A stretch of DNA of 59,367 nt from a virus (Duplodnaviria; Caudoviricetes). Below the pieces are notes generated by a model that ran no database searches, was not told where the DNA came from, and saw only the letters and a list, made by a program, of their open reading frames with translations. This document shows, piece after piece, positions 1 to 59,367 of the stretch (positions within the stretch are counted from its first letter, which is position 1; each line of letters begins with the position of its first letter). The position numbers and the translations under genes are program-made. The stretch spans positions 1 through 59,367 of the IMG/VR virus record IMGVR_UViG_3300037419_001059. One strand, 5' to 3'.

Positions 1-172
1 CAGCAGGCCATCGGTGACGGGCCGAAGTCTGAGTAATTGATCCGTTGGATCAATTTGTGAAAGGTCGCGGCGGTGGTCGGCATCCTCCTCAAGGACTTCA
101 CGGGTTGCACGCCCAAGTTGGACGTGCGCTCGCTGCCGGATAACGCCGCCGCGTCCTCCATCAACCAGCGCC
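1..172. repeat. Terminal overlap, left copy (circularity signature)
   Basis: 1-172 matches 59196-59367 at 169/172 positions. The only mismatches are 44-46 GTT vs 59239-59241 ACC. Confidence 0.95.
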
Positions 173-1818
173 CGAACACGGGCGGCCTGGAGCCGGTGCG
201 GTTCCCCGACCCGGTGAAGGCCGTCGCCGCCAGCACCCGGTTCGTGTACCGCATCCCGATCCCCGACGCCTTCGCGGTCAACCTGACGCAAGGGTATTGG
301 TGGGAGTTTGCCGACCAAGACACCGACGTGGTGCGCGGGCCAACGGTGAACGATTCGTTCGAGCGGTACTATTACTGCTCCCCAAGCACGGGCCTGCGCT
401 TCGCCACCAAGGCCGATATCATCGCGGGCAACGGCCAGTCGAACAGCCATGCCATCGGCGTGCCGAGGCCGGGCCAACCGCCCGTCGTCACACCCGACAC
501 GACGAACTCGGCGCGTGAGCCGCCAGAGGACTCGGACGGTGATGGTGTGCCCGACACACCGGGTGCCTTCATCGCGGAGGTTTTGACCCGCGAGTACGTC
601 GTCACGTTCATAAACCAGTACGGCGAGGAGAGCGGCCCGAGCCCGGCGGCCGAGGCGACGGCCCCGACCGATGCCGTGTGGAACGTGACGAACATCCCTC
701 AGCCGGGGGTGTTCGACCGCGACTATGCGCCGATTACCACGATTCGCCTCTACCGGACGGTGACGGCGCTGAGCGGCAGCACCGTGTTCAACTTCGTCGT
801 GGATCTGCCTGTCGGCACCACGAGCTACGCCGACATCCTCAACGATCTCGTCGTGTCGGGCACGACCCAGCTTGAGACCACGAACACCGACCCGCCGCCG
901 CTCGGGCTCCAGGGGGTGGCATTGATGCCGAACGGCATCATGGTCGCGTTCAAGGGGAACAACCTCTACATCAGCGACAATTTCAAGCCGTGGTCCTGGC
1001 CGGTGGCCTACCAGCTCTCGGTCCAGCACTACATCATCGGACTTGCCGTCATCGGGAACACCTGCATCGTCTGCACGACGAGCAACCCGTGCTCGCTCAC
1101 GGGCTCGACGGGCGCCACCATGGCGCTGACGCAAAACGCCGCCCCGCTGCCCTGCTACAGCCGCCAGAGCATCGCCGTGGCGCCCGAGGGGGTCTATTGG
1201 GCGTCCTACAGCGGCCTCGTGCTGTTCACCCTGTCGGGCGCCAAGATCGTATCGGATGAGGTGATCGGACGAACCGCCTGGGCCACACAGTTCAACCCGG
1301 AGTCGATGGACTGTGTGTTCGCCTATGGCATGTACTTCGGCCGTCAACAGAAAGTCCTGCGGGACACCATACCCGTGAGCACCGTCGAAGTCGGGTTCGG
1401 CATCGGCGAAGGCTCCACGGTCAACTATGACGATCTGGCTGACACGGTGGCCTGCGGGCTCGACTTCGCGTCGGGTAAGCCCTGGATCATCAAGGGCGGC
1501 CAGATCTACGAGTGGCTGCCGTCCGGCACGCTGCTGAAGACGGTCATCTGGACATCGAAGCAGTTCCAGACACAGAAGCCGGTCAACTTCGGCGCCATCC
1601 AGGCGTACTACGACACCAGCGTTGAGCTTGCCGGCGTGCATGTGCGCTTGTTCGGGAACAACGGCGTGCTGCGCTGGGAAGGCGATCTGGCTGACCGTAA
1701 GGTCAAGCGGCTGCCGTCGTCCTTCAAGGACGACATCTGGCAAGTCGAGATCACCTCGAACACGATTGTCCATCGTCTCGCGCTCGGCCAGACGGTCGAA
1801 GATCTGAAGAACGTCTGA
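73..1818 (+). CDS. Tail tubular protein B / packaged-DNA stabilization (nozzle)-like protein
   Basis: 581 aa, beta-rich with propeller-like segments (NNLYISDNFKPWSWP, VYWASYSGLV). Lies just upstream of the tail, GNAT and internal virion genes, as in podoviruses. Confidence 0.65.
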   Translation: MVGILLKDFTGCTPKLDVRSLPDNAAASSINQRPNTGGLEPVRFPDPVKAVAASTRFVYRIPIPDAFAVNLTQGYWWEFADQDTDVVRGPTVNDSFERYYYCSPSTGLRFATKADIIAGNGQSNSHAIGVPRPGQPPVVTPDTTNSAREPPEDSDGDGVPDTPGAFIAEVLTREYVVTFINQYGEESGPSPAAEATAPTDAVWNVTNIPQPGVFDRDYAPITTIRLYRTVTALSGSTVFNFVVDLPVGTTSYADILNDLVVSGTTQLETTNTDPPPLGLQGVALMPNGIMVAFKGNNLYISDNFKPWSWPVAYQLSVQHYIIGLAVIGNTCIVCTTSNPCSLTGSTGATMALTQNAAPLPCYSRQSIAVAPEGVYWASYSGLVLFTLSGAKIVSDEVIGRTAWATQFNPESMDCVFAYGMYFGRQQKVLRDTIPVSTVEVGFGIGEGSTVNYDDLADTVACGLDFASGKPWIIKGGQIYEWLPSGTLLKTVIWTSKQFQTQKPVNFGAIQAYYDTSVELAGVHVRLFGNNGVLRWEGDLADRKVKRLPSSFKDDIWQVEITSNTIVHRLALGQTVEDLKNV

Positions 1819-2756
1819 TGGCCGCGACCAAAGACTATACGTTCACGACCGTCCCCGAGGCGGGGGCTGACGTGGATTCGCTGTTGCAGACTGTCAACGC
1901 GCTGCGGCAGAACATGCAGACGTTGATCGGGCAGCGCAACACCAACACGCCGAGCATCACCGATCAGGTGAAATCGGCGACCACGGACGTGCAGCGGCTC
2001 CAGAAGCAGTTCACGACGGAAGGTCAGTCAACGGCCGAAATCATCGACAGTGTGAAGGCCGAGGCGGACGGGATCAGCGCCAATGGCAAGCTGAAATTTA
2101 TCGCGACCGCCGGCCCGCAGGGGTACTTTGCCGAGTACAAGCTGGCGCTCAAGGTCGGCAGCGCCGTCTCCGGGTTCTCCGTACTTGCCAAGAAGAACGG
2201 GGACGGCACGTTCTCGTCCGCCATCTCGTTCACCGCCAATCAGTTCCAGCTCTTTGACCCGACGTTGAACAACGGGCAGGCGGTCGGCCCGACCCAGGTG
2301 TTCAATTACAGTTCCGGTGTGTTCCGGTTCAACGTGCCGGTGGAAGTTCTCGGCGAACAGATCGAAGTCGCTGGCTGCTCAAACAGCGTCCTCGTTACAA
2401 ATGACGACGCGAATGCCGTGCAACTCGAAGCACAGATCACGACGCGCCCGAACGCCCAGGTTGACGTATACGGCCAGTTCGACGGTCAGCCAGACGTTTC
2501 GTTTCCGTTCGAAGCAGGTTCAAAATTACTAAGTCTGGAACGCACGAACCCGGACGGATCAGTAACCGTTCTGCGCAACACGCGCGTTCAGTTTTTTGTC
2601 GTTCGAACGGATACAACTCAGAATATTTTCTTCTCACATACCCATCTGATGTATAGAGATACACCAACACCCGGCGTCAACGTTTATCGGCTGAAGATGA
2701 TCAACGGCGTTCCGCAGGGGCCTCTGATCCTCAACGTGGTGGAGCGCCATCGGTGA
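1818..2756 (+). CDS. Tail fibre / host-specificity-related protein
   Basis: 312 aa with an N-terminal coiled coil and a GFSVLA...SAISFTANQFQLFDP segment reminiscent of phage tail-tip domains. Coupled by a TGATG overlap. Confidence 0.5.
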   Translation: MAATKDYTFTTVPEAGADVDSLLQTVNALRQNMQTLIGQRNTNTPSITDQVKSATTDVQRLQKQFTTEGQSTAEIIDSVKAEADGISANGKLKFIATAGPQGYFAEYKLALKVGSAVSGFSVLAKKNGDGTFSSAISFTANQFQLFDPTLNNGQAVGPTQVFNYSSGVFRFNVPVEVLGEQIEVAGCSNSVLVTNDDANAVQLEAQITTRPNAQVDVYGQFDGQPDVSFPFEAGSKLLSLERTNPDGSVTVLRNTRVQFFVVRTDTTQNIFFSHTHLMYRDTPTPGVNVYRLKMINGVPQGPLILNVVERHR

Positions 2757-3244
2757 GGGACCGCATCCATATCGGCGACGAGGAAGCCGTGCTTGCCGGG
2801 CGCCGCGTTATGGCGCTCGCCGGGGGTGCCGTCTACAACCCCGAAGGCGAGCGCTGCATCGCGCGCTACGTCAATGGCGTGTTCGTCGGTGGCGTCGTCT
2901 ACAGCAACGCCACACAGACCTCCCTGGAGATGCACGTCGCCGGGGTGCGGCGCGGCTGGCTCAACCGCGACCTCCTATGGGTGGCGTTCGACTTCCCGTT
3001 CGTGCAGCTCGGTCTCAAGAAAGTTTTCTGCCGTATCCAGGCGTCCAATACGGAAGCGCTCCGGTTCAATGCCAGCCTCGGTTTCAAGGATGAAGCAGTA
3101 TTGAAGGATGTGTATCCAGACGGTGACATGATTATACGTTCAATGTATAAGGCAGATTGCCGTTTCTTGAACATAGTCGCTCGGACGATACGTAGACGCG
3201 AGGTTGTCGGTCATGGGGAAGCAGAAAGCACCGGCAGCGCCTAA
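2753..3244 (+). CDS. GNAT-family (RimJ/RimL-like) acetyltransferase
   Basis: N-x-x-A-x-x-F-N-x-x-LGFKDEA motif. Typical position before the internal virion genes. Confidence 0.75.
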   Translation: MRDRIHIGDEEAVLAGRRVMALAGGAVYNPEGERCIARYVNGVFVGGVVYSNATQTSLEMHVAGVRRGWLNRDLLWVAFDFPFVQLGLKKVFCRIQASNTEALRFNASLGFKDEAVLKDVYPDGDMIIRSMYKADCRFLNIVARTIRRREVVGHGEAESTGSA

Positions 3245-4364
3245 TTACGCGCCGATCATCGCGGCGCAGACGCAGGCTGCGACCAATTCGCAGAACTTGG
3301 CGAACCAGCAGTTTGCCTGGGGTCAGCAGCAGTTCGCGAAGAACAGCGCCAACACCGACCAAGCGGTTGCCGGCGCCAACCAGACGGCGGCGCTGAACAC
3401 CGGCTACGCCGCGCAGGACCGCGACCGCTACGTTCAGACATACCAGCCGCTGGAAGACGAGTACATTGCCAACGCGCAGAAGTACTCCGACCCGACCCAG
3501 GTCAACAGCCGGGCGGCAGCGGCAGCCGGCGACGTGTCGCAGCAGTTCGACGTGGCGCGCGGCAACGCCCAGCGGCAACTTGAAGCCTATGGCGTGGACC
3601 CGACACAGACGCGGGCGGCGGCGCTCGATCTCGGCACCCGCACCCAGGAAGCGGCGGCCCGCGCCAGCGCCGCGAACACGTCGCGCCGCCAGGACGCGCT
3701 GACCGGGCAGCAGATGCTGGGCGCCGCCATTCAGCAGGGCAATACGACGGCCACACGGGGGCTTCAGGAAAGCCAGCTCGGGCTCCAGGCAGGGCAGACC
3801 GGCGTCAGCGAAAATCTCGCCACCACGATCTCCGGTGCGTCCACGCTGGGCACGGCGCCGACCTATACGGGCCTCGCCAACTCATCGCTGGCAGGCTCTG
3901 CCGCCACGACCAACCAGCAGTACCAGAACAATCTGGACCGCTACAAAGCCAATCAGGCGTCCAGCTCGGGGCTCGGCGGCGCGCTCGGTTCAATCATCGG
4001 GTTCGGTGCCAAGAGCTACGACAGCGGCGGTAGGATCGGGAATGCCATCGCCGGACTGTTCGAGGACGGCGGCGCGGTGCCCGATGATCAGGAGCTTGCC
4101 GCGCAGTCGCATGCCGGCATCAAGGTTACGCGCGAGATGTCGCCCTCCCGTGGGCTCCAGACCGACGACGTGCCGGCCCGCCTCAACGCGGGCGAATTCG
4201 TGCTGCCGGCCGAGACGGTGGCGTGGATCGGCCAGAAGCACCTTCAGGGGCTGATCAAGAAGTCCGCCGAGGAGCAGGCGCAGGCCAAGGCCCGGCCCCG
4301 CATCGCGGCACTGCCGGTGGAACGCCCGCGCGTCGATACTGGCGCCCTACAGGTTCGGAGGTAA
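3213..4364 (+). CDS. Internal virion (ejection) protein
   Basis: Ala/Gln/Gly-rich with a C-terminal DDVPARLNAGEFVLPA motif. ATG 3213 follows GAGG. Confidence 0.6.
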   Translation: MGKQKAPAAPNYAPIIAAQTQAATNSQNLANQQFAWGQQQFAKNSANTDQAVAGANQTAALNTGYAAQDRDRYVQTYQPLEDEYIANAQKYSDPTQVNSRAAAAAGDVSQQFDVARGNAQRQLEAYGVDPTQTRAAALDLGTRTQEAAARASAANTSRRQDALTGQQMLGAAIQQGNTTATRGLQESQLGLQAGQTGVSENLATTISGASTLGTAPTYTGLANSSLAGSAATTNQQYQNNLDRYKANQASSSGLGGALGSIIGFGAKSYDSGGRIGNAIAGLFEDGGAVPDDQELAAQSHAGIKVTREMSPSRGLQTDDVPARLNAGEFVLPAETVAWIGQKHLQGLIKKSAEEQAQAKARPRIAALPVERPRVDTGALQVRR

Positions 4365-4370
4365 GTCGCG

Positions 4371-7283
4371 ATGGGTATGGGTCAGGAGCTGAAGGATTTC
4401 GTCAGCGGCTTCAGCTCGGGCTACAAGCTCGCGACGCCGACCGAGGGCGAGCTGAAGGCGAAGCAGGAGCGGGACCGGCAGGACGCAATCTCCAAGCTTG
4501 CCGAGAATGACCAGTCCGCGGTCCCCGGCCGCCTGGGGGTCGCGCCGCACCTCTACAAGACCGGCGATGATGGCTCGGGCACCGGCTCGGGCACCGGCTC
4601 AGGCAAGGTAGGCCGCAGCCTGCCGGTGTTCGCGACTGACCTGGGCGAGATGGCGCCTTACGCGCAGTCGATCAGTAAGGTGGAGAGCGGCGGCCGGTAC
4701 GATGCCCTCGGGCCTAAGACGAAGACCGGAGACCGCGCCTATGGCCGTTATCAGGTCATGGGCGCCAATATTCCAAAGTGGACGCAGAAGTATCTCGGCA
4801 GGTCCATGACGCCGGATGAGTTCCTTAAGGACCCGGAAGCACAGGATAAGGTGTTTGCCGGCGAGTTCGGCAGCTACATCAAGAAGTACGGCAACCCGGC
4901 CGATGCCGCGTCGGTGTGGCACTCCGGCAGGCCGCTCGCGACGGCAGCTAGGCTGGGCCTGTCTGACGGGAACATGAAGACCACGGACTACGCCAAGGCC
5001 GTGGTCGGCTCGCTGCCGCGCAGTGCTTCATCGGCGCCCGCTGTGCAACCCGCCCTTCCCCCAACCGCCGTGAACGCCGCGCCAGCGCCGATTCAGGGCA
5101 TCCCCATGCCCGCGCCGGGTGGCCGGACCATGGTCTTGCCGGGTGCCCAGGCGGAGGCCGACCAGGGCGACACCTACAACCCCGGCGACGACAACCAGCC
5201 GACGCAGCTCGCGGCGGATGGCGGCGCGATCATGCCCGTGATGCAGATGCCACCCGACGACCAGATGCAGGACGCCGCGCCGCCCCTGCCGCCGCGGCGC
5301 CCGTCCGACGCCGAGCTTCAAGTTGATCCGCAGATCAATTCACAGCCGGATTACCACCGCATCGCCGGCACGCACGAGGCCATCGACGCCGGTATGGGCG
5401 CGATCAGCAGGGACCTCGAAAATCCAGATGCCGCCCTACCGCAAGCCGGGTCTGATTATCATGGTCGAGTTGCTGCGTTCCATCGCGGCGATGATGCGGC
5501 GACGCCGCAGGAAATCCGACAGATCGATCAGACCATCGACCCTGACAACCGGCTCGTCGCCGACGCGAAGGCCGTCGCGCGCCTGAATGCCGGATACAAA
5601 TACTTCTTGATGCAGGGCGACCCCGACAGAGCCGAGAAGTACGCCAAGTCGATCCTTGGCTACACCAAGCAAGCCGTGAAGTATTACGGTGCGCAGGCCG
5701 AGCAGAAGCTGCGTGCCGGCGATATCGCGGGCGCCGCCGAGGATATCCAGAAGGGCCACAACGAGGTGCCCAACGGGGCGTCGCTCTACATCGACAAGGT
5801 AGATCCGAAGACAGGTAAGGTCGATTACCGCGTTCTGGACGAGGATGGCGACTTGACCGAACGTGGTCAGGCTTATGCCAACCAGCTCATGTCGGTCGCG
5901 ACCGGCATGCAGAACGGCAGTGAGTGGCTGAACCAGATCGCGCAGGGGCGCCAGAACTCGCTGACCGCCGCGCAGAAGGCCGCCGAGAAGCGTCGGGCTG
6001 CCGACGAGGGCGCGGCCAACTCGTTCTATGGCGGGTCCGACATGGACCTGATCAACAAGATGTCGCCCGAGGCCCGCAAGGGCTTCGACGCGGCCTCCCC
6101 TGCCCTCAAGCGGCAGATGCTGGCCGACCTCGCCAACCGCGAGAACGCGGCGCGGGCGCAGACCAAGGACGACCAGAAGCAGGCGTATTACCAGCGTAAG
6201 CAGGATCTGGCGGACACGAAGGCGCAGGACCAGCAGGACTACGCCGGCCACGCGGCTGCCATCGAGAACGCGCGGGATGCCCTGATCGCGCAGCGCAATG
6301 ACGACCCTTACGACACCGAGAAGATGCAGGCAGCGCAAGCCGCCTACGACAAAGCGCTGAGCGACGCCCGTGCCTGGGCGGGTGCCGGCCCGAACCGTGC
6401 GGCGTTCGTCCCGCAGCTCGAACGGCTCGGCAAGTCCGGTGGCGGCGTCGGCGGTGGCGCGGCGGGCGGGACCGGCGGTGGCGGCAAGGGTGGCACGAAG
6501 GACGAGCGCAACATCGCCGGCCTGGACCGCCAGTACACCATGTTCGAGAAGGCCGCGCAGCGCGAGAAAGACCCGGAGCGGCAGAAGCAGCTCATGGCCG
6601 CCCTGCCCCACCAGAAGGCGCAGATCGAGTTCGCCAAGCACGACACCGGCTTTGACGACAAGATCACGCCCGATGTCGAGGCACAGGCCAGCCGGATCAT
6701 CGGCCTGAAGGAGGGTGCCGAGCCCGACGACAAGCAGTCCACGCAGCTCAACGAGTACCAGAACGCCATCCGTGGCATCTTGCAGGGCGACAATGACCTC
6801 ACGCCGAAGCAGGCTGCCGACCTCGCCAAGCTCGCGGTGAAGACCGGCAAGATCAATCTCGACAACGGCCTGTACAGCATCAACGGGTCTGACCCGATCC
6901 GCATGTCACCGCGTGCCGTGTCGTCACTCGCCCGTCTGGTGAAGATGAACAAGCCGGCCGAGCAGCCCACGGCGACGACGCGCAACCCGTTCAGCCCCGA
7001 CCGCCCATCGTCCATCCCGACGCCGGACGAAGCCGATACGGCGAACGCCAGGGCACAGCGGGTGCAGGCCCGACAGGAGGATGCCGCGCCGCGCCGTCGT
7101 CGCGACAAGAGTGCGGAGTACGATCAGCTCCGTTCACAGATCGATGACAGTACATTCGAGCGGATGAAGCAGTTGTCCGGCAGTACAGACGGGCGCGTGC
7201 CTCTTGCTTATCTGCGTAGAGTTGTGAGAGAACAGGCCGGTAAGCGGGCTCGTGTTGTAGATCCCGACCCCAATATGCCGTAG
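4371..7283 (+). CDS. Internal virion protein with lysozyme-like/lytic transglycosylase domain
   Basis: 970 aa. ISKVESGGRYDALG...AYGRYQVM resembles the transglycosylase catalytic Glu and G-x-x-Q motifs. Confidence 0.7.
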   Translation: MGMGQELKDFVSGFSSGYKLATPTEGELKAKQERDRQDAISKLAENDQSAVPGRLGVAPHLYKTGDDGSGTGSGTGSGKVGRSLPVFATDLGEMAPYAQSISKVESGGRYDALGPKTKTGDRAYGRYQVMGANIPKWTQKYLGRSMTPDEFLKDPEAQDKVFAGEFGSYIKKYGNPADAASVWHSGRPLATAARLGLSDGNMKTTDYAKAVVGSLPRSASSAPAVQPALPPTAVNAAPAPIQGIPMPAPGGRTMVLPGAQAEADQGDTYNPGDDNQPTQLAADGGAIMPVMQMPPDDQMQDAAPPLPPRRPSDAELQVDPQINSQPDYHRIAGTHEAIDAGMGAISRDLENPDAALPQAGSDYHGRVAAFHRGDDAATPQEIRQIDQTIDPDNRLVADAKAVARLNAGYKYFLMQGDPDRAEKYAKSILGYTKQAVKYYGAQAEQKLRAGDIAGAAEDIQKGHNEVPNGASLYIDKVDPKTGKVDYRVLDEDGDLTERGQAYANQLMSVATGMQNGSEWLNQIAQGRQNSLTAAQKAAEKRRAADEGAANSFYGGSDMDLINKMSPEARKGFDAASPALKRQMLADLANRENAARAQTKDDQKQAYYQRKQDLADTKAQDQQDYAGHAAAIENARDALIAQRNDDPYDTEKMQAAQAAYDKALSDARAWAGAGPNRAAFVPQLERLGKSGGGVGGGAAGGTGGGGKGGTKDERNIAGLDRQYTMFEKAAQREKDPERQKQLMAALPHQKAQIEFAKHDTGFDDKITPDVEAQASRIIGLKEGAEPDDKQSTQLNEYQNAIRGILQGDNDLTPKQAADLAKLAVKTGKINLDNGLYSINGSDPIRMSPRAVSSLARLVKMNKPAEQPTATTRNPFSPDRPSSIPTPDEADTANARAQRVQARQEDAAPRRRRDKSAEYDQLRSQIDDSTFERMKQLSGSTDGRVPLAYLRRVVREQAGKRARVVDPDPNMP

Positions 7284-7289: not shown

Positions 7290-10200
7290 ATGCCCGAGAT
7301 TGATCTTGCTACGCTCCCGGTGGATCAGAACTACCGGGACGCGTTGGCACCGGAGCCAGGTATCTCGGGTTCGGACTATGGGCGGGCCGCCGCCGCAGGC
7401 GCCTACGGCGTCGTGGGCTCGGCGGCGGCCGGCGTCGATTACTTGGCCGACACGGACGATGATAGCGCGCTGAAGAAACTGCGCCATTACGCCGATGAAG
7501 GCGCCAAGGCCCAGGTCGAGCAGATGTCCCCGGCGGCGCGTGAAGCGCTCAACGCCGGCTTCCTGCCGGGCAGCGACAAGTCGATCTGGTCGCCGGACGT
7601 GTCGATTGCGTCCTCGCTCGGGCTGAAGCTCGCGAACGCCTCCCCTTCCCTCCTGGCGAGCATCATCCCCGGCGGCATCGTGGCCGGCGTGGCCCGTGGC
7701 GCTCTGACCGCCGGGGCGGCTGCGGCGGCCGGTACGGCCGCATCGGGGACCGCCAACGCCGCGATGATGGGCGGTCAGGTTTACGACGACATCGAGAAGT
7801 CGATCCTCGACGCCAAGGACGACGACCTCAAGTCCAGCTCGCCCGTCTACAACGCCCTGCGCAAGGACTATTCCGAGGGCGTCGCTAAGAAGGTCCTGGT
7901 GGAGACGGCTGCCGGCAACAAGCCGCTGCTCGCCGCCGCTGTCGGCGCCATCACCGATCAGTTCGGCGCGGCTGCGGCGACGGCCAAGCGGGCTGTCGGT
8001 CAGGCCGGGGAAGGCATCTTGAAGGGGGCGCGGAAAGGGCTTGTCGAAGAGTCCGCCAACGAGGCCGCGCAGAATGCCACCCAGGAGGCGCTGACCCAGC
8101 AGGGACAGGTCCAGGCCGGCACCGGGCAGTGGGATTACCTGAAGATCCTTGAGCAGGCCGCACAGGGTGCCACGGTCGGCGGCATCATGGGCGGTGTCGT
8201 CGGCGGCGCCACGGGCATCGGCGGCCGGCAGGGCGAGGGCGCGTCAGGCTCTCAGCGGGTGCCGGCCACGGCCCAGGAGACGACCCAGGACGCGGCGCGT
8301 GTCGGCGTCCTGGCCATTGACCCGGCCGTGGCAGAGGCGGCCGGCGGGCGCCAGCAGAGCCGGGCGGCGCTCGACGCCGTGGACGACGCCATGTCGTCGC
8401 TGGAGAAGGCCCGCCCGGTGCCGGTTGACCCGGCCATCGCCGCTGCGGTCAAGGGCGGCGATCAAGTTGATCCACGGAGCACTTTCGAGCCGCAGAACGA
8501 GTTTGAGGCCGACCCGGATGCGCTGCCGGCCGAGGAAGCGGCTGCCGACCAGCTTCCCGCCGCTCAGCCCCCCGCACCGCAGGAGCCGACGCCCGCACCG
8601 ACCCAGGAACCCCAGGAGCCCGCCCAGGCTGCCCAGCAGCAGGCGCCGGCCCCCGAGGAGCAGCCTGCCACCCAGCCGGAACCTGCGCCCGCTGTAGCCC
8701 CCTCTGAGGCGCCGGAAACGGCAAGCGCGAGATCGCCGACCGCGACGACCATCGACCTCGATACGTTTCTCGACAGCGAGCAGGCCGAAGCGCCCTCCCC
8801 CGCCCCGCGCGTGCTCCAGGCGACCGAGCAGCCAGCCGCGCCGACTGAACCGGCCGCGCCCCGTGCGGTCGGCCGCATCTCGGCGGCCGAAGCCACGCGC
8901 ATCGCCAAGGGCGAGGGCGATGCGGTCACGCTGTCTACGAACCCGGAAGACTGGAAGAAGCAGAGCGACCGGACCAGCGTCAAGAACCTCGCCGAGGCGA
9001 TGGTCAAGGTGCGTGGCGACGACGCCCCGCAGTGGGCGCGCGACTTCCTCGACGCCTATGGGCAGAAGCGCGTCGGTCAGGGACCGGCGGCGAAGGCGGC
9101 CCGTGAAAAGCTCCTGGCGGCCCGGCAGGCGCTGCACGACGAGACCCAGGCCCGCGTGCAGCAGGGCGTGGCCCGGCGCGAGACCACGAACGAGGCCCGC
9201 GACCGGCAGGCCCAGGAGAAGCGCTACCGCGACGGCACCGAGGCCGAGCGGCTGATCAGCGCCACGACCATGCCCCGGCTGGCCGAGCGCGCCGTGCCGA
9301 AGGCGGTGCGGGAATACGCGGCCTCGCTCCTGTCAAAGGCGAAGCAAGCCAAGATCAGCCTCGACGGCAATACTGACGATGCGCACATTCTGCACCTGAA
9401 GACGGCGCAGGAAGTCGCCCGTGCCGGTTCTACCAAGGAACAGCTTCAGCAATTCATCGCGGACGACTTCCTGCTGCGCCAAGGTGCCGGCGAGGAGATC
9501 TCTGCACGTCGTCGCGCCGAGGCGCTTAAGTCTGAGCGGAGCTATGACGAAGTACAGAGGGCGGGGCCGGAAGTCCGCGAAGGTGCAGACGCCTCCGAAG
9601 CCTACGACGCGCAGGGAGCCCACGCAGAGGCTGCCGTTGAACCACAGGACACCCTACAGGGCCGCAGTGAAGATCACGCTCCTGCGGAACCTGTATCTGA
9701 GCCAGTTCAACAGCCGGTAGTTGATCCAACGGATCAATTCGTGGTGGTCGGCCAGAACAAGGCCGGGCAGTTCAAAGTCGAGAGCCGGGGCCGCCGCAAG
9801 GTGGCTGAGCGGAAGGCTGCGGCGAAGGAGGAGCCGGCACCGTTCAAGGTCGCGCCCGGCCTGAAGGCCGTCAAGTTCAAGGACGGCTACACCATCCTGC
9901 CGGCCGGCGCTCGGCCCGAGGAAGGCGTCAACCGCGCCGGGCTCAACTTCACTATCCACAAGGATCGCATCACGGTCGATGGCTCGTTCCTGCACTCTGC
10001 CGACCGGGGCAAGGGCAACGGCGTGCGCATGTACGAAGCCCTCGCCAAGCTAGGCCAGGAGCGTGGGCTGCCGATCTACAGCGACTACGACATCTCACCC
10101 GAAGCCAAGCGCATGTATGACCGCTTGGCGTCTCGCGGCTACGACGTTGAGTACGCTGCTGGGCTCGCGCTTGACGAAGACGGGAACCGCGCAGGTTTCC

Positions 10201-13200
10201 GGGGCAAGTACGTGCCGGGCGAGGAAGACAGTTTCACGGTTCGGGTGAACCCGAAGCAAGAGCTGCGCCCCCTCCCCTACGGCAGCAACACACCGCGCGC
10301 CAGGGAGGCCGACCCGGATGTCGAGCGCCATGCCCGCGAGCTGGCCCGGCTGCTCGGCGACGAGCCGGAGGTGGACACTGACAACCTCATCGTGTCGCCG
10401 CGCACGGGCGCCACGACGCCGATCCTGCACACCGCGACGCTTGAAGCCTACCTCAAGGACATCAACCACAAGGCTGCCGGCGGCGTCGCGGCCGAGGTGA
10501 ACCCGTTCATAGCCCGGCGGCTCTTGCAGCTCATCCCCGACGTGAAGGTGCATACCGTCTCGGTCGAGGGCATGCGGGCGCTGACCGAAGACCTTGCCGG
10601 CAAGGGCGGCTTCCCCAAGCAGATCAGTGGCTACTATGACCCGGTGACGCACGAGATCGTGCTGCGCGATCAGGATGTTACCGAAGCCGAGCTGTCGCAC
10701 CTCATCATCCACGAGGGCCTGCACGCCGCGTTCATGCGGACCATCGAGCGGGTGCCGGCAGCCAAGGCAATGATCCGCGACCTGATGGACAGGGCGCTCG
10801 CCCATTACGGCGAGAGCTTCCGGTCAGAGTACGGCATGACCAACGAACACGAGTTCGTGTCGGAGGCCATGTCGTCGCGCGACTTCCAAGAGAAGCTTGC
10901 GCGGGTGCCGGTGAGCGAGAGCTTCAACGCCCTGCCGATCAAGAACGTGTGGGCCTACTTCGTCGCTGGCGTGCGCAAGTTCCTCGGCCTCAAGCCGGTG
11001 CAGACCTCCGCGCTCGACGCCGCGCTGCGGGTCGGTGCCGTGCTCACGGACCTGCGCACCGCCCACGATCTGCCGTCCACGCCGCGCACTGCCTACGCCA
11101 TGCCCCACGCGCTCGGGGCGGACACCATCCGCGAGGGCTTCAGCGACGTGAAGGGCGCCACCCGCCTGATCGCGTCAGCCAAGGTGCTGCGCGTCCGCAC
11201 GCTCGATCAGATCCGGCAGGGCTACCGCAACCTGTTCCCGGCTGGCGACGGTGGCGACCACCTCGACAAGCTCGTCGCTGCGATGCAGCGGCAGAACGCC
11301 TACGTGGAGGGCAAGTCACGCGAGGCCGATACCCATGTGCAGGACTTCCTGAATCTCAAGAAGTCCAACCGCAAGGTGGCCGAAGACTTCGCCGTGCTCG
11401 CCAACGACGTGACCATGGCCGACCTCAACATGCTCAAGGGCAGGCCGACCCTGGAGGAGATGCAGGCGGCCAACAAGCACGTCTACGGCTCGGACCCGAA
11501 GAAGTCCGACATCTCCATGGCGTGGCAGAGCAAGGCACAGCACGCCGCGTTGCAGCGGCGGTTCTCGGCCCTGCCGGACGCCGTGCAGGACCAGTTCATC
11601 CGTGCGGCGAAGTTCTACCGGGACACGCAGAACGAGACGGCGCGGACCTTCGTCACGTCGATCCTCGATCAGATGGCGCCCGACATGAACGTGGCGCAGC
11701 GTACCGAGATCGCCGCCAAGGCACTGGCCGGCACGCTCAACGAGGACGATGCCAAGGCGCTCAACAACGCCACGCTGTTCAATGCCCTGAAGGATGCCGG
11801 CGCGGCCCGCTCGATCAAGGGCATGTACTTCCCGCTGAAGCGCAACGGCGACTACGTGGTGCGCACCCGCGACATCATCACGGACACGATGGGCGGCACG
11901 GAAGTCGAGCCCGGCGTCGTGGAGTTCTCAGCCGACAGTGACAAGACATCGCGCAAGCAGGCGGAAGCGTTCGCCAAGGCGACGGGCCTGAAGGTGACGC
12001 GGATCGCCAAGCGGTACTACGACCACCAGACCGGGGAGCTGATCAAGGCTGCCGACGCCGAGAAGGACAGCCGCGTCGCCTACCGCGTCACCGTGCAGAC
12101 CCATGGTCTGCATATGTTCGAGAGCGCCAGGGAGGCGGAAAAATTCGTCCGCGAGGCACGGCGCGATGGCGACTTCCACGCCGTGGAGGACGTGCAGCAC
12201 CGCCAGGACATGGAGGCGCGGGGCGACCTCTCCTATTCGCAGCTCTCGGCGCTCACCCGCAGCGTGGATCAGCGGGACGACCTGACGCCGGGGCAGCGGG
12301 AGATCCTGAAGACCGCCATCGCCCAGGCCGCCATCCGCCAGATGTCGGGCAACCGCATCCAGAAGCACTCGCTCGCCCGCAAATTCTACGCGGGCGCCAG
12401 CGAGGATTTCGGGCGCAACATGCTCCAGTACGCCACGGCGCAGAGCAACTATATCGGCAAGCTCAAGTACATGCCGACCGTGCGCAACCACCTCGGCGAG
12501 ATGGAGAAGCACGCCAATGCCTTCAACGCCGACAAGTCGCAGCTCCGCAAGACGGTGTTCGAGGAGGTGAAGAACCGCGTCAACGCTAACGATGCGGGGA
12601 TCAACAAGCCGAGCAAGTTCGTCCGCGACCTGATGCAGGTCGCGATGCTGTCGAAGCTTGCCGGCCCGTCGCACTCGATCATCAACGCCGCGCAGCCGCT
12701 GATGACGACGTATCCGGTCCTGGCCGGCGAGCACGGCCCGATGTCATCCGCCCTGGAGCTGGGCAAGGCGATGAAGGACATCGGGGCTTGGCGCACATAC
12801 GGCACGGGTGTCGTGAATAGCTACAAGGCCGCCCGCCACATCTTCGAAACATCGATCGATGCGACCGACCCGGTTGGATCGATCCGTAAGAAGCTCGCCC
12901 GGCAGCCGGACGGGGCGGCGCTCGGCCGGGTGCTCAGCGAGTTGCAGGAACGCGGGGCGCTCGGCGACGGCGCCGAGTTCGAGATGGCTGCTGCAATCGC
13001 CTCCGGCAGGGGCGTGGCGGGCACGGCTATCGCCAAGGCGGATCGGATCTTCCGGCAGGCTCCGGCCGCCGTAGAGGCCGTGAACCGCGCAGGATCGGCC
13101 GTCGCGGCGTACCGGCTCGCCCGGCGCAAGGGGATGTCGGAGGAGAAGGCCACACAATACGCGTTCGACACGGTGCAGAAGACGCAGTTCGACTATTCCG

Positions 13201-14111
13201 GGTTCAACGCTCCCCCGGTGTTCAACAACCCGGCGCTGCGGCCCTTCCTCCAGTTCAAGAAGTACGGGCAGGCGATGACCGACCTGTACGCGAGCATGCT
13301 GTACCGGGCGTTCAAGGGCGACAGCATGGCCGACCGCAAGGTCGCCATAAAGCAGTTCGGCGCCCTGTTCGGCATGCACGCGCTGATGGCCGGTGCCTTC
13401 GCGGTGCCGGGCCTGGAGCTGTTCAAGGTCGGTGCCATGGTGGCTGCCGCGCTCGGCGTCGGCTCGGGCTGGCAGGACCAGCAGCGCAGGCTCAAGCGCT
13501 ACGTCGAGAGCGCGGCCGGCAAGGATTGGGCCGACATCGTGCAGAGCGGGCTCGTGAGCCACGTCATCGGCGTGGACCTGTCGTCGCGGATGTCGGCTGC
13601 CGACCTGTGGACCTTCGGTGAGCCGAAGAAATACACCGGCAGCGAGATCGGCGGCTGGATCGGCGCACAGCTCCTGGGCGCGTCCGGCAGCACCGTGCTC
13701 GACATGCGCGACGGGCTCGGGGCTATCGAGGAGGGCGACTACCTCAAGGGCGCCATCAAGATCGTGCCGGCCAAGGCGCTCGCCGACATCGGCAAGGCGA
13801 TCAACGGCTACACCAGCGACAAGGTGCATCTGTCGCCGACCGAGGCCGTGGCGCAGGGGCTGGGCTTCAAGCCGAAGCGGATTGCCGACCAGCAAGAGAA
13901 GCTGTCCGACATCATCGCCGACCGCAACAAGGTCAAGGCCGAACGAGACAAGCTGCGCAACCGCTACTTGGATGCCGGCTCTGCTGGGGCTCGCCTGAAG
14001 ATCAGGGCGCAGATCATCCAGTATAACAAATCCGCAGAGCAGCGGATGCGTCTGAGCATTCCCAGCTTGGACAAGATGCGCGACAGAGATACAAGAGAAG
14101 GACTACGGTAA
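7290..14111 (+). CDS. Giant internal virion / large polyvalent protein
   Basis: 2273 aa. Contains a GNAT-like RGKGNG motif, a zincin-like HEGLH...EFVSEA motif, and YFPLKRNGDY (PLxRFG-like). Confidence 0.7.
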   Translation: MPEIDLATLPVDQNYRDALAPEPGISGSDYGRAAAAGAYGVVGSAAAGVDYLADTDDDSALKKLRHYADEGAKAQVEQMSPAAREALNAGFLPGSDKSIWSPDVSIASSLGLKLANASPSLLASIIPGGIVAGVARGALTAGAAAAAGTAASGTANAAMMGGQVYDDIEKSILDAKDDDLKSSSPVYNALRKDYSEGVAKKVLVETAAGNKPLLAAAVGAITDQFGAAAATAKRAVGQAGEGILKGARKGLVEESANEAAQNATQEALTQQGQVQAGTGQWDYLKILEQAAQGATVGGIMGGVVGGATGIGGRQGEGASGSQRVPATAQETTQDAARVGVLAIDPAVAEAAGGRQQSRAALDAVDDAMSSLEKARPVPVDPAIAAAVKGGDQVDPRSTFEPQNEFEADPDALPAEEAAADQLPAAQPPAPQEPTPAPTQEPQEPAQAAQQQAPAPEEQPATQPEPAPAVAPSEAPETASARSPTATTIDLDTFLDSEQAEAPSPAPRVLQATEQPAAPTEPAAPRAVGRISAAEATRIAKGEGDAVTLSTNPEDWKKQSDRTSVKNLAEAMVKVRGDDAPQWARDFLDAYGQKRVGQGPAAKAAREKLLAARQALHDETQARVQQGVARRETTNEARDRQAQEKRYRDGTEAERLISATTMPRLAERAVPKAVREYAASLLSKAKQAKISLDGNTDDAHILHLKTAQEVARAGSTKEQLQQFIADDFLLRQGAGEEISARRRAEALKSERSYDEVQRAGPEVREGADASEAYDAQGAHAEAAVEPQDTLQGRSEDHAPAEPVSEPVQQPVVDPTDQFVVVGQNKAGQFKVESRGRRKVAERKAAAKEEPAPFKVAPGLKAVKFKDGYTILPAGARPEEGVNRAGLNFTIHKDRITVDGSFLHSADRGKGNGVRMYEALAKLGQERGLPIYSDYDISPEAKRMYDRLASRGYDVEYAAGLALDEDGNRAGFRGKYVPGEEDSFTVRVNPKQELRPLPYGSNTPRAREADPDVERHARELARLLGDEPEVDTDNLIVSPRTGATTPILHTATLEAYLKDINHKAAGGVAAEVNPFIARRLLQLIPDVKVHTVSVEGMRALTEDLAGKGGFPKQISGYYDPVTHEIVLRDQDVTEAELSHLIIHEGLHAAFMRTIERVPAAKAMIRDLMDRALAHYGESFRSEYGMTNEHEFVSEAMSSRDFQEKLARVPVSESFNALPIKNVWAYFVAGVRKFLGLKPVQTSALDAALRVGAVLTDLRTAHDLPSTPRTAYAMPHALGADTIREGFSDVKGATRLIASAKVLRVRTLDQIRQGYRNLFPAGDGGDHLDKLVAAMQRQNAYVEGKSREADTHVQDFLNLKKSNRKVAEDFAVLANDVTMADLNMLKGRPTLEEMQAANKHVYGSDPKKSDISMAWQSKAQHAALQRRFSALPDAVQDQFIRAAKFYRDTQNETARTFVTSILDQMAPDMNVAQRTEIAAKALAGTLNEDDAKALNNATLFNALKDAGAARSIKGMYFPLKRNGDYVVRTRDIITDTMGGTEVEPGVVEFSADSDKTSRKQAEAFAKATGLKVTRIAKRYYDHQTGELIKAADAEKDSRVAYRVTVQTHGLHMFESAREAEKFVREARRDGDFHAVEDVQHRQDMEARGDLSYSQLSALTRSVDQRDDLTPGQREILKTAIAQAAIRQMSGNRIQKHSLARKFYAGASEDFGRNMLQYATAQSNYIGKLKYMPTVRNHLGEMEKHANAFNADKSQLRKTVFEEVKNRVNANDAGINKPSKFVRDLMQVAMLSKLAGPSHSIINAAQPLMTTYPVLAGEHGPMSSALELGKAMKDIGAWRTYGTGVVNSYKAARHIFETSIDATDPVGSIRKKLARQPDGAALGRVLSELQERGALGDGAEFEMAAAIASGRGVAGTAIAKADRIFRQAPAAVEAVNRAGSAVAAYRLARRKGMSEEKATQYAFDTVQKTQFDYSGFNAPPVFNNPALRPFLQFKKYGQAMTDLYASMLYRAFKGDSMADRKVAIKQFGALFGMHALMAGAFAVPGLELFKVGAMVAAALGVGSGWQDQQRRLKRYVESAAGKDWADIVQSGLVSHVIGVDLSSRMSAADLWTFGEPKKYTGSEIGGWIGAQLLGASGSTVLDMRDGLGAIEEGDYLKGAIKIVPAKALADIGKAINGYTSDKVHLSPTEAVAQGLGFKPKRIADQQEKLSDIIADRNKVKAERDKLRNRYLDAGSAGARLKIRAQIIQYNKSAEQRMRLSIPSLDKMRDRDTREGLR

Positions 14112-14266: not shown

Positions 14267-14313
14267 TATAAGGTAGCCGTGTTGATCCATGGATCAACAC
14301 GGCCCAGGAGGAT

Positions 14314-23604: not shown

Positions 23605-25185
23605 TTATAACTGATTACTTGCAAACAAAGCAAGTACCGAGTCCTGCATCTTCTGTTTACTTTTGAGCTTCGTGTAGATCGTTTTCTCCGCTTTCGTGGA
23701 TTGGTACATCAGGACCAGTTGCCGATGCTTCTGGCCCACACGGCGAATACGGGCGTTCGCCTGCTCGAATGTCTCAAGCGAGGCTAGCGGCCCGAACCAG
23801 ATGATCGTGTCGGCACGCGTGAGCGTGATGCCGTGCGACATACACTGCGGATGCGCCACGATGACCTTGTACTTGTCGGTGTTCTGAAACAGGTTGAACA
23901 CCTGATCACGCTCTTTGCTCGGCGTGTCGCCGGACACGACGGCGTGCTCGATCTTGGCCTTCGTCAGCCGCTCCGAGATGCCGGCCAGCGTGTGGATGAA
24001 CGGCGCGAACACGATGCACTTCTGCGAGCACTCGTTCACGTCCTGCTCAAGCCGGTCGAGCCGGGCGTGATTGTCCAGGCTGACGATGTGCCGCTCAGTG
24101 GCACCGGGCTTCATCGCGTAGATGTAGCCGGTCGAGACCTGAAGCATCTTGTTGAGCATGGCGCCCGCGTTGACGGCGGTGATCTCGCCAGAGTCCACCT
24201 GAGCGTAGGCTTCCTTGCGCAGAGCCTCGTACACCTCCGTCTGCTTCGGCCCCATGTCGATCTGCACGTCCTGCATCACCACGTCCGGCAGCTCGGTCAC
24301 GTCGTCCAGCGTGAACCGCACCGCCGGCTGCATCACGCGCAGCACCGTGTCCTTGGCGTCCGGCCGCGGAGCGTACTTGAACTGGCTCACCTTCGTCATG
24401 GTCGCCTCGCGGAAGTGCGAGAAGCGACGCGGCATGCTGTTCGGCGTGAGCACCATGCACTGGCCGTAGGCGTCGGTCGGGGACTCCGGCGTCGGGCTGC
24501 CGGTCATGCCCCAGGCCCAGGCCCTGGCGTTCGGCGTGCCGTTGCCGATCAGCGCCCGCAGCGCCTTGTTCTTCTCCGAGCCGAAGTTGCGGAACGCCGT
24601 CAGCTCATCGATCACCACCACGTCGATGTCGGGGCGCTTCTGGAGTTCGCCCAGGATCACCTCGATGCCATCCGGGTTGATGATGTAGATGTCGTGTTCT
24701 TCGGCGAGCCGCTTCAGGCGCTTGTCTTTAGAACCATGCAAAACTGTCGCGGATAGGTGCGGCATCAACTTGAACGCATCCCGCGCCCAGGTGAAGTGCA
24801 GCGTGGACAGCGGCGCGATGACCAGCATCTTCCTGGCGAGCCCGACCGACCGCAGGTAGTCGAACGCCCACAGGGCGCACCGCGTCTTGCCGGTGCCCTT
24901 GTCGTTGAGCACGTAGCCGCGCGGCTCGGTCGTCAGCATCGCCACTGTCTTGCGCTGCGCCTCGAACGGCGGCTGCCCAGGCGGATGGGGCCACGCGTAT
25001 TGTGTCAGCACGGGTGCCGGCACCTGAAAGCCCATGGCCCGCAGGAGCCGTACCGACTTCAGCTCGTGGGGGATCAGAGCCGACTGGCCCTCGAACGGCA
25101 CCACCTGTGCCCCAGGGAATTGCTGGAGCACAGCGGGGATCGCCGGCACCGCCAGGAGCTTCCGTTTCGTGCTGACGTGAATCAT
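23605..25185 (-). CDS. SNF2-like (SF2) helicase
   Basis: DKGTGKT, VIDE, MTGSP and QANARIRRVGQ motifs. Confidence 0.9.
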   Translation of the reverse strand: MIHVSTKRKLLAVPAIPAVLQQFPGAQVVPFEGQSALIPHELKSVRLLRAMGFQVPAPVLTQYAWPHPPGQPPFEAQRKTVAMLTTEPRGYVLNDKGTGKTRCALWAFDYLRSVGLARKMLVIAPLSTLHFTWARDAFKLMPHLSATVLHGSKDKRLKRLAEEHDIYIINPDGIEVILGELQKRPDIDVVVIDELTAFRNFGSEKNKALRALIGNGTPNARAWAWGMTGSPTPESPTDAYGQCMVLTPNSMPRRFSHFREATMTKVSQFKYAPRPDAKDTVLRVMQPAVRFTLDDVTELPDVVMQDVQIDMGPKQTEVYEALRKEAYAQVDSGEITAVNAGAMLNKMLQVSTGYIYAMKPGATERHIVSLDNHARLDRLEQDVNECSQKCIVFAPFIHTLAGISERLTKAKIEHAVVSGDTPSKERDQVFNLFQNTDKYKVIVAHPQCMSHGITLTRADTIIWFGPLASLETFEQANARIRRVGQKHRQLVLMYQSTKAEKTIYTKLKSKQKMQDSVLALFASNQL

Positions 25186-29762: not shown

Positions 29763-29981
29763 TTAATCGGCTCGCCGGGCTCTTTCCGTTTTGATCTGTG
29801 GATCAATTCCCTTCAGCACGAAGGCGTGCCGCCCGCCCTGCTGCACCACGGCCTCAAGGTAGGCGTCGTGCAGGCGGTTGATGCACTCCAGCGCGTTGTC
29901 CAGCGTGATCTGCCCACTATCGAGCCCGGCCTTGAAGGCTATCGTGAACGGGTACAGGTGCTGGTCAGTCGCGGGCTTCAT
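29763..29981 (-). CDS. Hypothetical protein (72 aa)
   Basis: Start reassigned to ATG 29981 (MKPATDQ...). Confidence 0.55.
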   Translation of the reverse strand: MKPATDQHLYPFTIAFKAGLDSGQITLDNALECINRLHDAYLEAVVQQGGRHAFVLKGIDPQIKTERARRAD

Positions 29982-33482: not shown

Positions 33483-33494
33483 GAGGGGTCCGTT

Positions 33495-33713
33495 TCAGGT
33501 TTGTGGTGGATCGCGGGGTTCTTTGTCGGCAAGCCAACAGGCTAGTTCTAACAGAGAAGGGCTTTTGAATACGTTGTAATCGGTTTCATTACATATCGCC
33601 GAGTAATGAACTTGCCAATCCCAAATTCGATAAGTGTACTGGGAGCACTTGACGTGCGCTTTCTTATATTTTCCTAGCGTGCTGCCATCCCATTTAAGTT
33701 CCGAGAGCCGCAT
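33495..33713 (-). CDS. Cassette mini-gene paralog 3
   Basis: MRLSELKW...LLELACWLADKEP; AT-rich core. Confidence 0.75.
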   Translation of the reverse strand: MRLSELKWDGSTLGKYKKAHVKCSQYTYRIWDWQVHYSAICNETDYNVFKSPSLLELACWLADKEPRDPPQT

Positions 33714-33716
33714 CGC

Positions 33717-34004
33717 TCACTCCCTCTTGGGGATCTCACCCCAATAGCAGTTGCCAGGGTCATAACCCCTGTCGTGATCGCGCCGGAACAGGCGATGACC
33801 TTCCGGGCACTCGCCCATATCTTCAAGGAAGATCTTGAAGTCGAACCACATCGGGTCGTGGTACTGCGCCGGTTGCTCGCGAACCCAGCGCTGACCTTCC
33901 TCGCTGACGCGCCGGATGTACGCCCAGGCGTTGTAGGTGCGGGTGTGCCGCATCCCGTGCTCCACAGGGCGGCCGGCAGCTCTGCGCACGGGGTGGTTCA
34001 TCAC
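33717..34004 (-). CDS. Degenerate HNH-related phage protein
   Basis: HGM..TRTYNAW...W.DF..FLEDMGECPEG...GYDPGNCYW pattern. Confidence 0.6.
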   Translation of the reverse strand: MMNHPVRRAAGRPVEHGMRHTRTYNAWAYIRRVSEEGQRWVREQPAQYHDPMWFDFKIFLEDMGECPEGHRLFRRDHDRGYDPGNCYWGEIPKRE

Positions 34005-35021: not shown

Positions 35022-35042
35022 TGAATTGCTCCGTGGATCAAC

Positions 35043-35070
35043 ATATAGGGTATTACGTAATAGTGTCAAG
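35043..35070 (-). promoter_or_regulatory. Sigma70-type leftward promoter with TATTACGTAATA between -35 and -10
   Basis: Minus strand reads CTTGACA-CTATTACGTAATACC-CTATAT, immediately followed by palindrome 35026-35041. Confidence 0.7.
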
Positions 35071-57927: not shown

Positions 57928-58458
57928 GTGGACCCGTCCAGTGCGATCAACATCATCAGCGGCCTCACGGGGGTTGTCGGTACGATCGCTGCGGTGATCG
58001 GGTTCACGTACAAGCGGGGCGGCGAGGAAGCCGTCTCGCAACAGAAGTTGACCGCCCTGCAAAAGCAGATCACTGACTTTCAGGAGCTGCTGAAGGATTT
58101 CACGAACGCTGCCGAGAAAAAGCACGACGCGCTCGACAATAAGCTTGAGAAGCGTATCGTGGAGGTTGATGCCAAACTCAAAGATGTGCATGAGCGCATC
58201 GAGCGACACGCGAAGGAATTCGATGCGAAGTTCGCAGCCTATGGTGCGTTCGAACGTTTGTTCTCCGATAGGCTCTCAGAGGAGCGGCAGTTCCTTTTAG
58301 AGAACTATATGAACCGCGGTGATATTCTGAGGATGGAGACAAAGCAGCAGAAGAGCCAGGAAGAGATCTTCAAGCATTTCGACAAGCTTGAAGCGAAACT
58401 GGATCACTACATCGAACAGATCGGCGTACAGCGATCTGAAGCCAGGAGAGCGACATGA
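57928..58458 (+). CDS. Membrane-anchored coiled-coil protein
   Basis: N-terminal TM segment followed by a coiled coil. GTG start after AAGGGA. Confidence 0.55.
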   Translation: MDPSSAINIISGLTGVVGTIAAVIGFTYKRGGEEAVSQQKLTALQKQITDFQELLKDFTNAAEKKHDALDNKLEKRIVEVDAKLKDVHERIERHAKEFDAKFAAYGAFERLFSDRLSEERQFLLENYMNRGDILRMETKQQKSQEEIFKHFDKLEAKLDHYIEQIGVQRSEARRAT

Positions 58459-59231
58459 CAAATTCCATCGAAGGTTTCGAAGATCACGAGATCTCGCACC
58501 TCTCCCCGAGGATGCGCGAGAAGCTTGCCGCCGAACGCAATCGCGGCAAGGCATCGGTCAGCGATGCGCAGAAGGCCGCCGACTACAACCGGCAGATTCA
58601 GGAGCGGGCGCGCGAACATAAGCGCCTGGACCCGGAGGAGATCCGCAAGCAGCGTGAGCATGCGCAGACGCGCCGGGCCGAGTTGGCCGCCGAGCAGCAG
58701 GCCGAGAACTCGACCGCCAACCTCCAGAAGGAGGCCGAGGACGCCCACGAGAGCCTTACCGGCGTGAACTACACGCCCGATCCGGCTGCGGCTGCCGCCG
58801 CGAGGGAATTGGTCCGCCAGCGCGTGGAGCAGGCACGTCGTGTTGGCCTTCAGCCGAACCAGGGCTTCATCGGCCATCCCGAGGCGTCCGAGGAGCAGGC
58901 GCTCGCCGCCGAGGCCAACGCCGCCAAGGAGGTGCAGGACCGCGCCGACGCCGCCAACTACGACGCGGCGGGCACCTACCAGGGCCACACGGACGACGTG
59001 GTGGCCCCGGCCTACGACGAGTGGGGCAACCCGCTCGGCGACGGCAACGAGAACGAGCAGGCCGGCGGCGTCGAGGAGACCCAGGAAGGCAACGGCCAGC
59101 CCGAGTACGTGCCGGAGCTGACCGCGACCGATCTGATGGGTGGCGTCGGCGAGCCCGAGCAGCGCCCGCGCCGTCGTGGTCGTCCGCCGAAGGGGCAGCA
59201 GGCCATCGGTGACGGGCCGAAGTCTGAGTAA
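58455..59231 (+). CDS. Acidic hypothetical protein with C-terminal AT-hook-like RRRGRPPK
   Basis: 258 aa; the motif is visible in the translation. Confidence 0.6.
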   Translation: MTNSIEGFEDHEISHLSPRMREKLAAERNRGKASVSDAQKAADYNRQIQERAREHKRLDPEEIRKQREHAQTRRAELAAEQQAENSTANLQKEAEDAHESLTGVNYTPDPAAAAAARELVRQRVEQARRVGLQPNQGFIGHPEASEEQALAAEANAAKEVQDRADAANYDAAGTYQGHTDDVVAPAYDEWGNPLGDGNENEQAGGVEETQEGNGQPEYVPELTATDLMGGVGEPEQRPRRRGRPPKGQQAIGDGPKSE

Positions 59232-59367
59232 TTGATCCACCGGATCAATTTGTGAAAGGTCGCGGCGGTGGTCGGCATCCTCCTCAAGGACTTCACGGGT
59301 TGCACGCCCAAGTTGGACGTGCGCTCGCTGCCGGATAACGCCGCCGCGTCCTCCATCAACCAGCGCC
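59196..59367. repeat. Terminal overlap, right copy
   Basis: Repeats 1-172, including the end of ORF 58455-59231 and the start of ORF 73-1818. Confidence 0.95.

Follow-up and report, generated by a model that had tools for sequence, protein, structure and literature searches.

The two ends of a circularly assembled temperate phage genome differ only in the spacer of a palindrome that recurs throughout the genome

The virus record IMGVR_UViG_3300037419_001059 is a whole virus contig that is classed as 'linear', with an estimated completeness of 98%. We analysed it over its full length of 59,367 nt (hereafter, the window), which has a G+C content of ~64%. Its two ends carry the same sequence, except for three bases in the centre of a palindrome. 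A gap-free alignment of positions 1–172 with positions 59196–59367 gives 169 identities out of 172, and 172 is the sole overlap length with six or fewer mismatches when all lengths between 100 and 399 are compared. The mismatches are exactly three, with G, T and T at 44, 45 and 46 facing A, C and C at 59239, 59240 and 59241, and all are transitions. A preliminary description had taken the two ends for one locus, differing only at GTT 44–46 and ACC 59239–59241, with every mismatch in the spacer of the palindrome, and the end-to-end alignment bears out both statements. The same description gave the palindrome as a 7-N3-7 site; this pattern is indeed present, but arms of 7 bp are too short, as the arms actually measure 9 bp. 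Were three mismatches placed at random among 172 positions, they would fill these three with a probability of 1/C(172,3), or 1.2e-6. The overlap consists of the following features.

1..172, plus strand: left copy of the overlap, with spacer GTT; it contains the palindrome together with 36 nt from the end of the upstream gene and 100 nt from the start of the next one
35..55, no strand assigned: left copy of the palindrome, intergenic, with 9-bp arms (35–43 and 47–55) and the 3-nt spacer GTT at 44–46
59196..59367, plus strand: right copy of the overlap, with spacer ACC; the last 127-mer of the contig (59241–59367) starts at the last variant base
59230..59250, no strand assigned: right copy of the palindrome, with ACC at 59239–59241, the version present in a contig of the sequencing run X1

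The palindrome at 35–55 directly follows a TAA stop codon (34–36), and a GTG start codon at 73 is 17 nt beyond its end. Predicted folding of the single-stranded DNA gives the same 9-bp stem and 3-nt loop for both alleles, at −6.6 kcal/mol. Since the predicted hairpin energies are equal, neither allele is structurally disfavoured.

Gene content shows what kind of genome the overlap closes. PHROG matches and the two genes next to the palindrome are listed here.

42808–44121, minus strand: integrase
47236–48786, minus strand: large terminase
49536–51656, plus strand: portal/adaptor protein
53554–54531, plus strand: major head protein
56668–57330, plus strand: endolysin
58455..59231, plus strand: upstream gene of 258 aa, whose stop codon adjoins the palindrome; faint tail-fiber PHROG match only (E 0.0017)
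73..1818, plus strand: internal virion protein, downstream of the seam (phrog_511, E 7e-144)
7290–14111, plus strand: ORF of a polyvalent virion protein of 2273 aa
minus strand, given without coordinates: primase/helicase, helicase, DNA polymerase and exonuclease

The window represents the entire, circularly assembled genome (~59.2 kb) of a temperate phage that is podovirus-like. The nearest named relatives are Rhizobium, Pseudomonas and Stx-converting phages, at ~27–28% amino-acid identity; the Stx-converting phages among them we take to be short-tailed. Judged from these distant relatives, the host is probably a proteobacterium. A megablast search of window positions 1–6000 against named phages gave no match, and the 258-aa upstream protein has no Pfam family at E ≤ 0.01 and no PHROG at 0.001. 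A virion operon on the plus strand runs from ~49.5 kb to the end of the window and continues from base 73, that is, across the seam between the two ends, so that the seam lies inside the virion-gene operon and ~10 kb from the terminase gene. A relative that spans this region, G001, is a 56650-bp contig with ~72% nucleotide identity to the window and a collinear layout. Its sequence runs on without a break at the seam: window segments 58866–59189 and 11–6934 correspond to the adjacent G001 segments 39675–40004 and 32737–39658. Because the seam lies in the middle of an operon and G001 is continuous there, the overlap is the product of assembling a circular or circularly permuted genome.

Few other sequences cover the locus. 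Among viral contigs, a search with the internal virion protein returned only G001 (86% amino-acid identity) and a second contig, G002 (28%), and none was confirmed in 30 candidate stretches of metagenome contigs or in 42 of genome contigs. The sole return for the 258-aa protein was a contig of a closer relative (L022), which ends at window position 58713, 520 nt before the site. An exact-pattern scan for the seam site with its flanks, allowing any spacer of 1–4 nt, gave 0 matches in viral contigs and 0 in metagenome contigs. The 7-N3-7 pattern as such occurred at no fewer than 116 loci in viral contigs, and among the matches listed none aligns to the window by blastn. Within the window, repeated 31-mers outside the terminal overlap amount to two overlapping words, which make up a 32-nt repeat (30035 and 31586).

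The seam palindrome is a member of a large family. The exact 7-N3-7 pattern occurs three times (at 37, 9721 and 59232) and the exact 7-N2-7 pattern at 11 sites, while neither appeared in 100 shuffles of the sequence. With up to two arm mismatches allowed, the non-redundant genome holds 35 sites, of which 32 have a 2-nt spacer, two a 3-nt spacer and one, a weak site, a 1-nt spacer. Seventeen of the 35 lie outside rough gene calls, several others fall at miscalled gene starts, and many occupy the gap that separates a stop codon from the start codon after it. There are thus ~35 dispersed TTGATCC-(2–3 nt)-GGATCAA sites, mostly at gene junctions. Two members stand apart, the first by its spacer and the second by its arms.

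9721..9737, no strand assigned: site with the 3-nt spacer AAC, the only one besides the seam; in frame in the gene of the 2273-aa virion protein
14276..14303, no strand assigned: family member located where the plus-strand virion operon ends, with arms extended to 12 bp (−13.9 kcal/mol)

The minus strand of the 9721 site is identical to the GTT 17-mer at 37–53, and the preliminary description was right that its spacer AAC is the reverse complement of GTT and that the site is read in frame (V-D-P-T-D-Q) within ORF 7290–14111.

The centres follow a simple rule. In the 11 exact 7-N2-7 sites they are AT (four), AC (three), GT (two), GC (one) and CT (one). All four of the centres named earlier, AC, GT, AT and GC, are therefore found, but the CT centre had been omitted. 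Across the family, 29 of the 32 two-base centres read purine-pyrimidine, compared to 126 of 433 (29%) in the CCnnGG background (p 7.5e-15), as do 16 of 22 centres in G001. Likewise, the 3-base spacers GTT, ACC and AAC all read R-N-Y, and both seam alleles accordingly have a purine in the first and a pyrimidine in the last position. The preliminary description had attributed the set of centres to inversion plus partial heteroduplex repair. This is unnecessary, as AC, GT, AT and GC are simply the four purine-pyrimidine dinucleotides; selection on a purine-pyrimidine centre suffices to explain the pattern.

Several further features of individual sites were observed. The position of the 14276–14303 site is conserved at G001 24778–24804, with palindrome arms of 12–13 bp around the core motif, and the site resembles a terminator that incorporates the family motif. 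At 32048, 35026, 37248, 38694, 39227 and 48913, in front of minus-strand early genes, the downstream arm on the coding strand reads GGAGCAA and is located 2–8 nt before the ATG. At this distance the arm doubles as a Shine-Dalgarno sequence, which may point to control at the level of translation or RNA. Low-G+C stretches (0.56–0.57) at ~40400–42050 and 44130–45180, which flank the integrase gene and have no convincing coding signal, contain three palindrome sites each within 0.5–1.2 kb; they may be an immunity or attachment region. We also considered other roles for the sites. A DnaA-box-like reading of AC-centred sites was rejected, the G001 version of the motif being unlike the consensus of such a box. 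A promoter reading, with an arm as the −35 element, was dropped as the start codon lies 2–8 nt after the site in about seven early genes. For most sites, an intrinsic-terminator reading was likewise set aside, as a T run is absent downstream of the majority and ordinary members form only a weak stem (−3.3 kcal/mol).

To see which part of the sites changes, the window was compared with two contigs (L019 and L022) of a ~93% identical relative, which cover 11 sites in 14884 aligned positions with 6.8% differences; the changes were counted by hand from the alignment output. Centres had changed at three of the 11 orthologous sites (GC to GT, AC to GT and AC to AT), that is, at 4 of 22 positions, compared to 2 of 154 arm positions and 23 of 220 positions in the 10-nt flanks. 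The centre differs from the arms (Fisher p 0.002) and the arms differ from the flanks (p 0.0002). The centres do not turn over significantly faster than the flanking intergenic sequence (4/22 versus 23/220, p 0.28), and their excess over the genome average is marginal (p 0.058). The centre is therefore the variable part of the sites, as had been proposed, in the sense of a tolerant part of a conserved site and not of a dramatic hotspot. Apart from the sites, ~3.2 kb of unrelated sequence in the same relative (L019 3486–6733) replaces ~1.4 kb of the window (45836–47239), a stretch that takes in the greater part of an ORF of 549 aa without a PHROG match. This difference looks like a swapped cassette beside the terminase gene.

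At the greater distance of G001 the arms themselves have changed. G001 has no TTGATCC site. Instead, it carries 27 sites with TTGTTCC/GGAACAA arms (one mismatch or none) and spacers of 1 or 2 nt, 15 of which are found no more than 15 nt from where the window sites predict them. The arm difference is a compensatory pair that affects both arms at 15 or more orthologous positions. Both sites with a 3-nt spacer (37–53 and 9721–9737) correspond to sites with a 1-nt spacer in G001 (39617–39631 and 29896–29910), and 12 of 13 mapped 2-nt-spacer sites correspond to 2-nt-spacer sites. Spacer parity is thus conserved between the two genomes, and odd-spacer sites tend toward longer arms. GATC is abundant in both genomes, with 473 occurrences in the window, where ~200 are expected from base composition, and 408 in G001. 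As the G001 palindromes lack GATC, the excess is not caused by the palindromes.

A second assembly shows which of the two centres prevails at the seam. Run X1 is public and possibly the source run, and was compared as assembled Logan contigs, which drop rare variants. All sampled words of the last 10 kb of the window are present in X1. Its record 1 (29348 nt, depth 15.4) covers 39491–59367 with 0 other letters and 0 gaps and extends 9471 nt past the last base of the window, so that it crosses the seam with ACC. The X1 contigs have other letters at 10 places, none of which is the A>G that a GTT contig would need at 59239. ACC is thus present and dominant in the X1 contigs, from which a rare GTT could be lost. 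The pieces listed for two further runs that hold small shares of the window, X2 and X3, stop at 58696 and 58318, respectively, short of the seam. As would be seen for an assembly overlap, the same locus is continuous both in a second assembly and in a relative, given that the X1 contig and G001 both cross the seam.

The lengths of identical sequence on either side of the variant suggest how the contig came to end. The two copies match exactly for 126 nt after the variant and for 43 nt before it, and the next 127-mer beyond the last one of the contig would already be present at the contig start. The assemblers metaSPAdes, MEGAHIT and IDBA_UD are reported to fragment contigs at within-population variation, leaving end overlaps of maxK (metaSPAdes and MEGAHIT) or maxK-1 (IDBA_UD) (PMC10914622). 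At k=127, a match of 126 nt is one below the maxK reported for metaSPAdes and MEGAHIT and would fit only the maxK-1 convention; the preceding run of 43 nt does not correspond to any usual k. On balance, and with moderate confidence, we interpret the seam as a product of assembly at a point where the spacer of a conserved palindrome varies within the population, ACC being the main allele. The k=127 coincidence suggests that the circle was left open since the reads held two versions of the spacer.

The course of events would have been as follows. Reads with two versions of one 3-nt stretch would keep the assembler from closing the circle, and the contig would run once round and then through the junction again on the other version. 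The two spacers would be the one branch left unresolved in a circle that was closed everywhere else. ACC would be the main version, and GTT, found only on the first 172 nt, presumably the minor one; as the variant is preceded by no more than 43 nt, the GTT version would be a short dead end. Changes would survive at this place as the arms are strongly constrained, while the spacer would need only a purine first and a pyrimidine last. Three adjacent changes amid 169 identical bases are unlikely to be independent point mutations and require a single event or an error, and we consider it more likely that GTT is a real variant within the population rather than an error. As in the contig breaks described in the COBRA study, the contig ends where reads would carry two versions of a short stretch, and the end overlap is about one k-mer long, with 126 nt of exact match after the variant; here, in contrast to the case described there, both ends belong to the same contig, which forms an open circle, and the match is 126 nt, not 127 (PMC10914622).

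The chief rival to an assembly seam at a true variant is a read or assembly error, which we hold to be possible but on the unlikely side; the preliminary description had named a read-error hotspot as its own alternative. GTT would then have arisen during sequencing or assembly where the DNA can form a hairpin, a low-coverage dead-end branch joined to the contig start would have brought it in, and the population would contain ACC only. This would agree with the X1 contig, which shows ACC and no GTT, and with the occurrence of GTT only within 46 nt of the contig end, where assemblies are least reliable. Moreover, sequence-specific runs of miscalls in Illumina data are described as having two triggers, of which inverted repeats are one (PMC3141275), and the seam resembles such cases in that several consecutive bases differ at an inverted repeat. 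However, the miscalls described there run on from their start position, whereas here the second arm and everything beyond it match, so that the differences are confined to the spacer (PMC3141275). They also keep to the R-N-Y rule of the family, all three being transitions, which random miscalls have no reason to do. Furthermore, 172 nt with GTT at k=127 would need more than one read of 150 nt, or else one longer read, always with the same triple change.

If GTT is real, a single event in vivo may have produced it. The preliminary description had offered cruciform loop flipping, or exchange between sites, as a possible source of centres that may be polymorphic. Perfect inverted repeats do surround the spacer, as spacer inversion would need (9-bp arms, −6.6 kcal/mol for both alleles). 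Yet the two alleles are not reverse complements: the reverse complement of ACC is GGT, not GTT, and only the outer two positions fit, which excludes a simple loop flip as the source of this allele pair. The orientation of the centres across the family bears on flipping as well. Read on the coding strand, AC centres number 14 and GT centres five (p 0.064, a weak test that depends on an automated region rule), or 15 and four when site 42074 is reassigned by hand to the plus-strand gene that it precedes. This is weak evidence that orientation is not randomised, and it argues against free flipping.

A less simple event would be a single template switch or short-patch conversion at the palindrome, either as an in-place inversion followed by a point change or by copying of site 9721 in inverted orientation; this is the preliminary proposal at its strongest. 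We regard this origin as rather improbable. Inverted copying of 9721, whose minus strand carries the GTT 17-mer of 37–53, would give GTT exactly, and one event would cover three adjacent changes while leaving 169 of 172 bases as they were. Still, a match of GTT to one orientation of one R-N-Y spacer would arise by chance in about one case in eight by our estimate, and a pure flip in place is excluded by the mismatch between ACC and GTT. At site 45057, AC has become GT in the 93% relative, the change that a flip makes, but also no more than two transitions within the purine-pyrimidine rule. Both 3-nt-spacer loci have 1-nt spacers in G001, so that these spacers are alike within each genome; the excess of AC over GT on coding strands (14 versus 5), on the other hand, fits poorly with frequent free flipping. 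Arms of 7–9 bp are, in addition, short for cruciform extrusion. Template switching by polymerases is described as inverting the spacers of inverted repeats and as yielding multinucleotide mutations (PMC8604942). The seam has in common with such spacer inversion, and with quasipalindrome mutagenesis (PMC7202029), a short perfect inverted repeat and a multinucleotide change of its spacer; it departs from the inversions described in PMC8604942 in that the seam spacers match the reverse complement at only the outer two of three positions.

In its widest form, the proposal would be that the spacer difference is a real, recurrent polymorphism caused by short-patch template switching between dispersed palindrome copies, which we find improbable. 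If it were true, the seam site would have copied the 9721 spacer in inverted form, pairing through just 7–9 bp arms. The ~35 sites would then be a spacer-exchanging network, which would explain why the odd spacers match within a genome (3 nt in the window and 1 nt in G001).

Finally, a linear genome that ends in genuine, physical direct repeats of 172 bp, with two copies that happen to differ, is very improbable. The length of 172 nt is typical for the short terminal repeats of T7-like podoviruses, and copies that differ at 44–46 would share no 127-mer at k=127 and would give an end-to-end linear contig. However, T7-type molecule ends would be expected to be non-coding, whereas this repeat overlaps the end of one coding gene and the beginning of the next within an operon, with the terminase gene ~10 kb away; G001 runs through this point without interruption; the phage must circularise, as it encodes an integrase; and the 126-nt coincidence would be left unexplained. 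Where the mechanism is known, moreover, packaging copies both terminal repeats from a single template, which makes them identical.

Whichever way the GTT spacer arose, the palindromes are probably binding sites of a phage-encoded factor. Arms that change in concert, with both sides compensated, are the pattern that a co-evolving sequence-specific factor would produce, and the comparison with G001 suggests such a genome-wide regulator. No DNA-binding family was found among 22 different, mostly small ORFs (20 searched against Pfam, 20 against PHROGs and 17 against both). The closest known parallel is provided by the stoperators of Cluster A mycobacteriophages, described as asymmetric 13-bp sites that are bound by a monomeric repressor (PMC9283540), with motif and cognate factor reported to co-evolve (PMC6550527, PMC9283540). 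Like stoperators (PMC9283540, PMC6550527), the sites described here occur in a temperate phage as dozens of dispersed copies, largely in short intergenic gaps (35 sites mostly between genes, with an exact site in 0 of 100 shuffles), and their motif differs between relatives, reading TTGATCC in the window and TTGTTCC in G001, where TTGTTCC/GGAACAA arms occupy 15 or more orthologous positions. Unlike stoperators, they are palindromes of 15–17 bp with a variable spacer of 1–3 nt, the probable host is a proteobacterium and no repressor was found among the 22 ORFs.

For the catalogue, these results mean that the record is a complete circular assembly that is labelled 'linear' only due to three differing bases in its end overlap. 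Allowing near-exact end overlaps could rescue such genomes. The spacer difference itself adds little biology until both alleles are seen in raw reads. Of greater value is the dispersed palindrome family. Its arms have changed together from one related phage to the other, whereas its spacer drifts but stays purine-pyrimidine, and the family points to a candidate genome-wide regulator.
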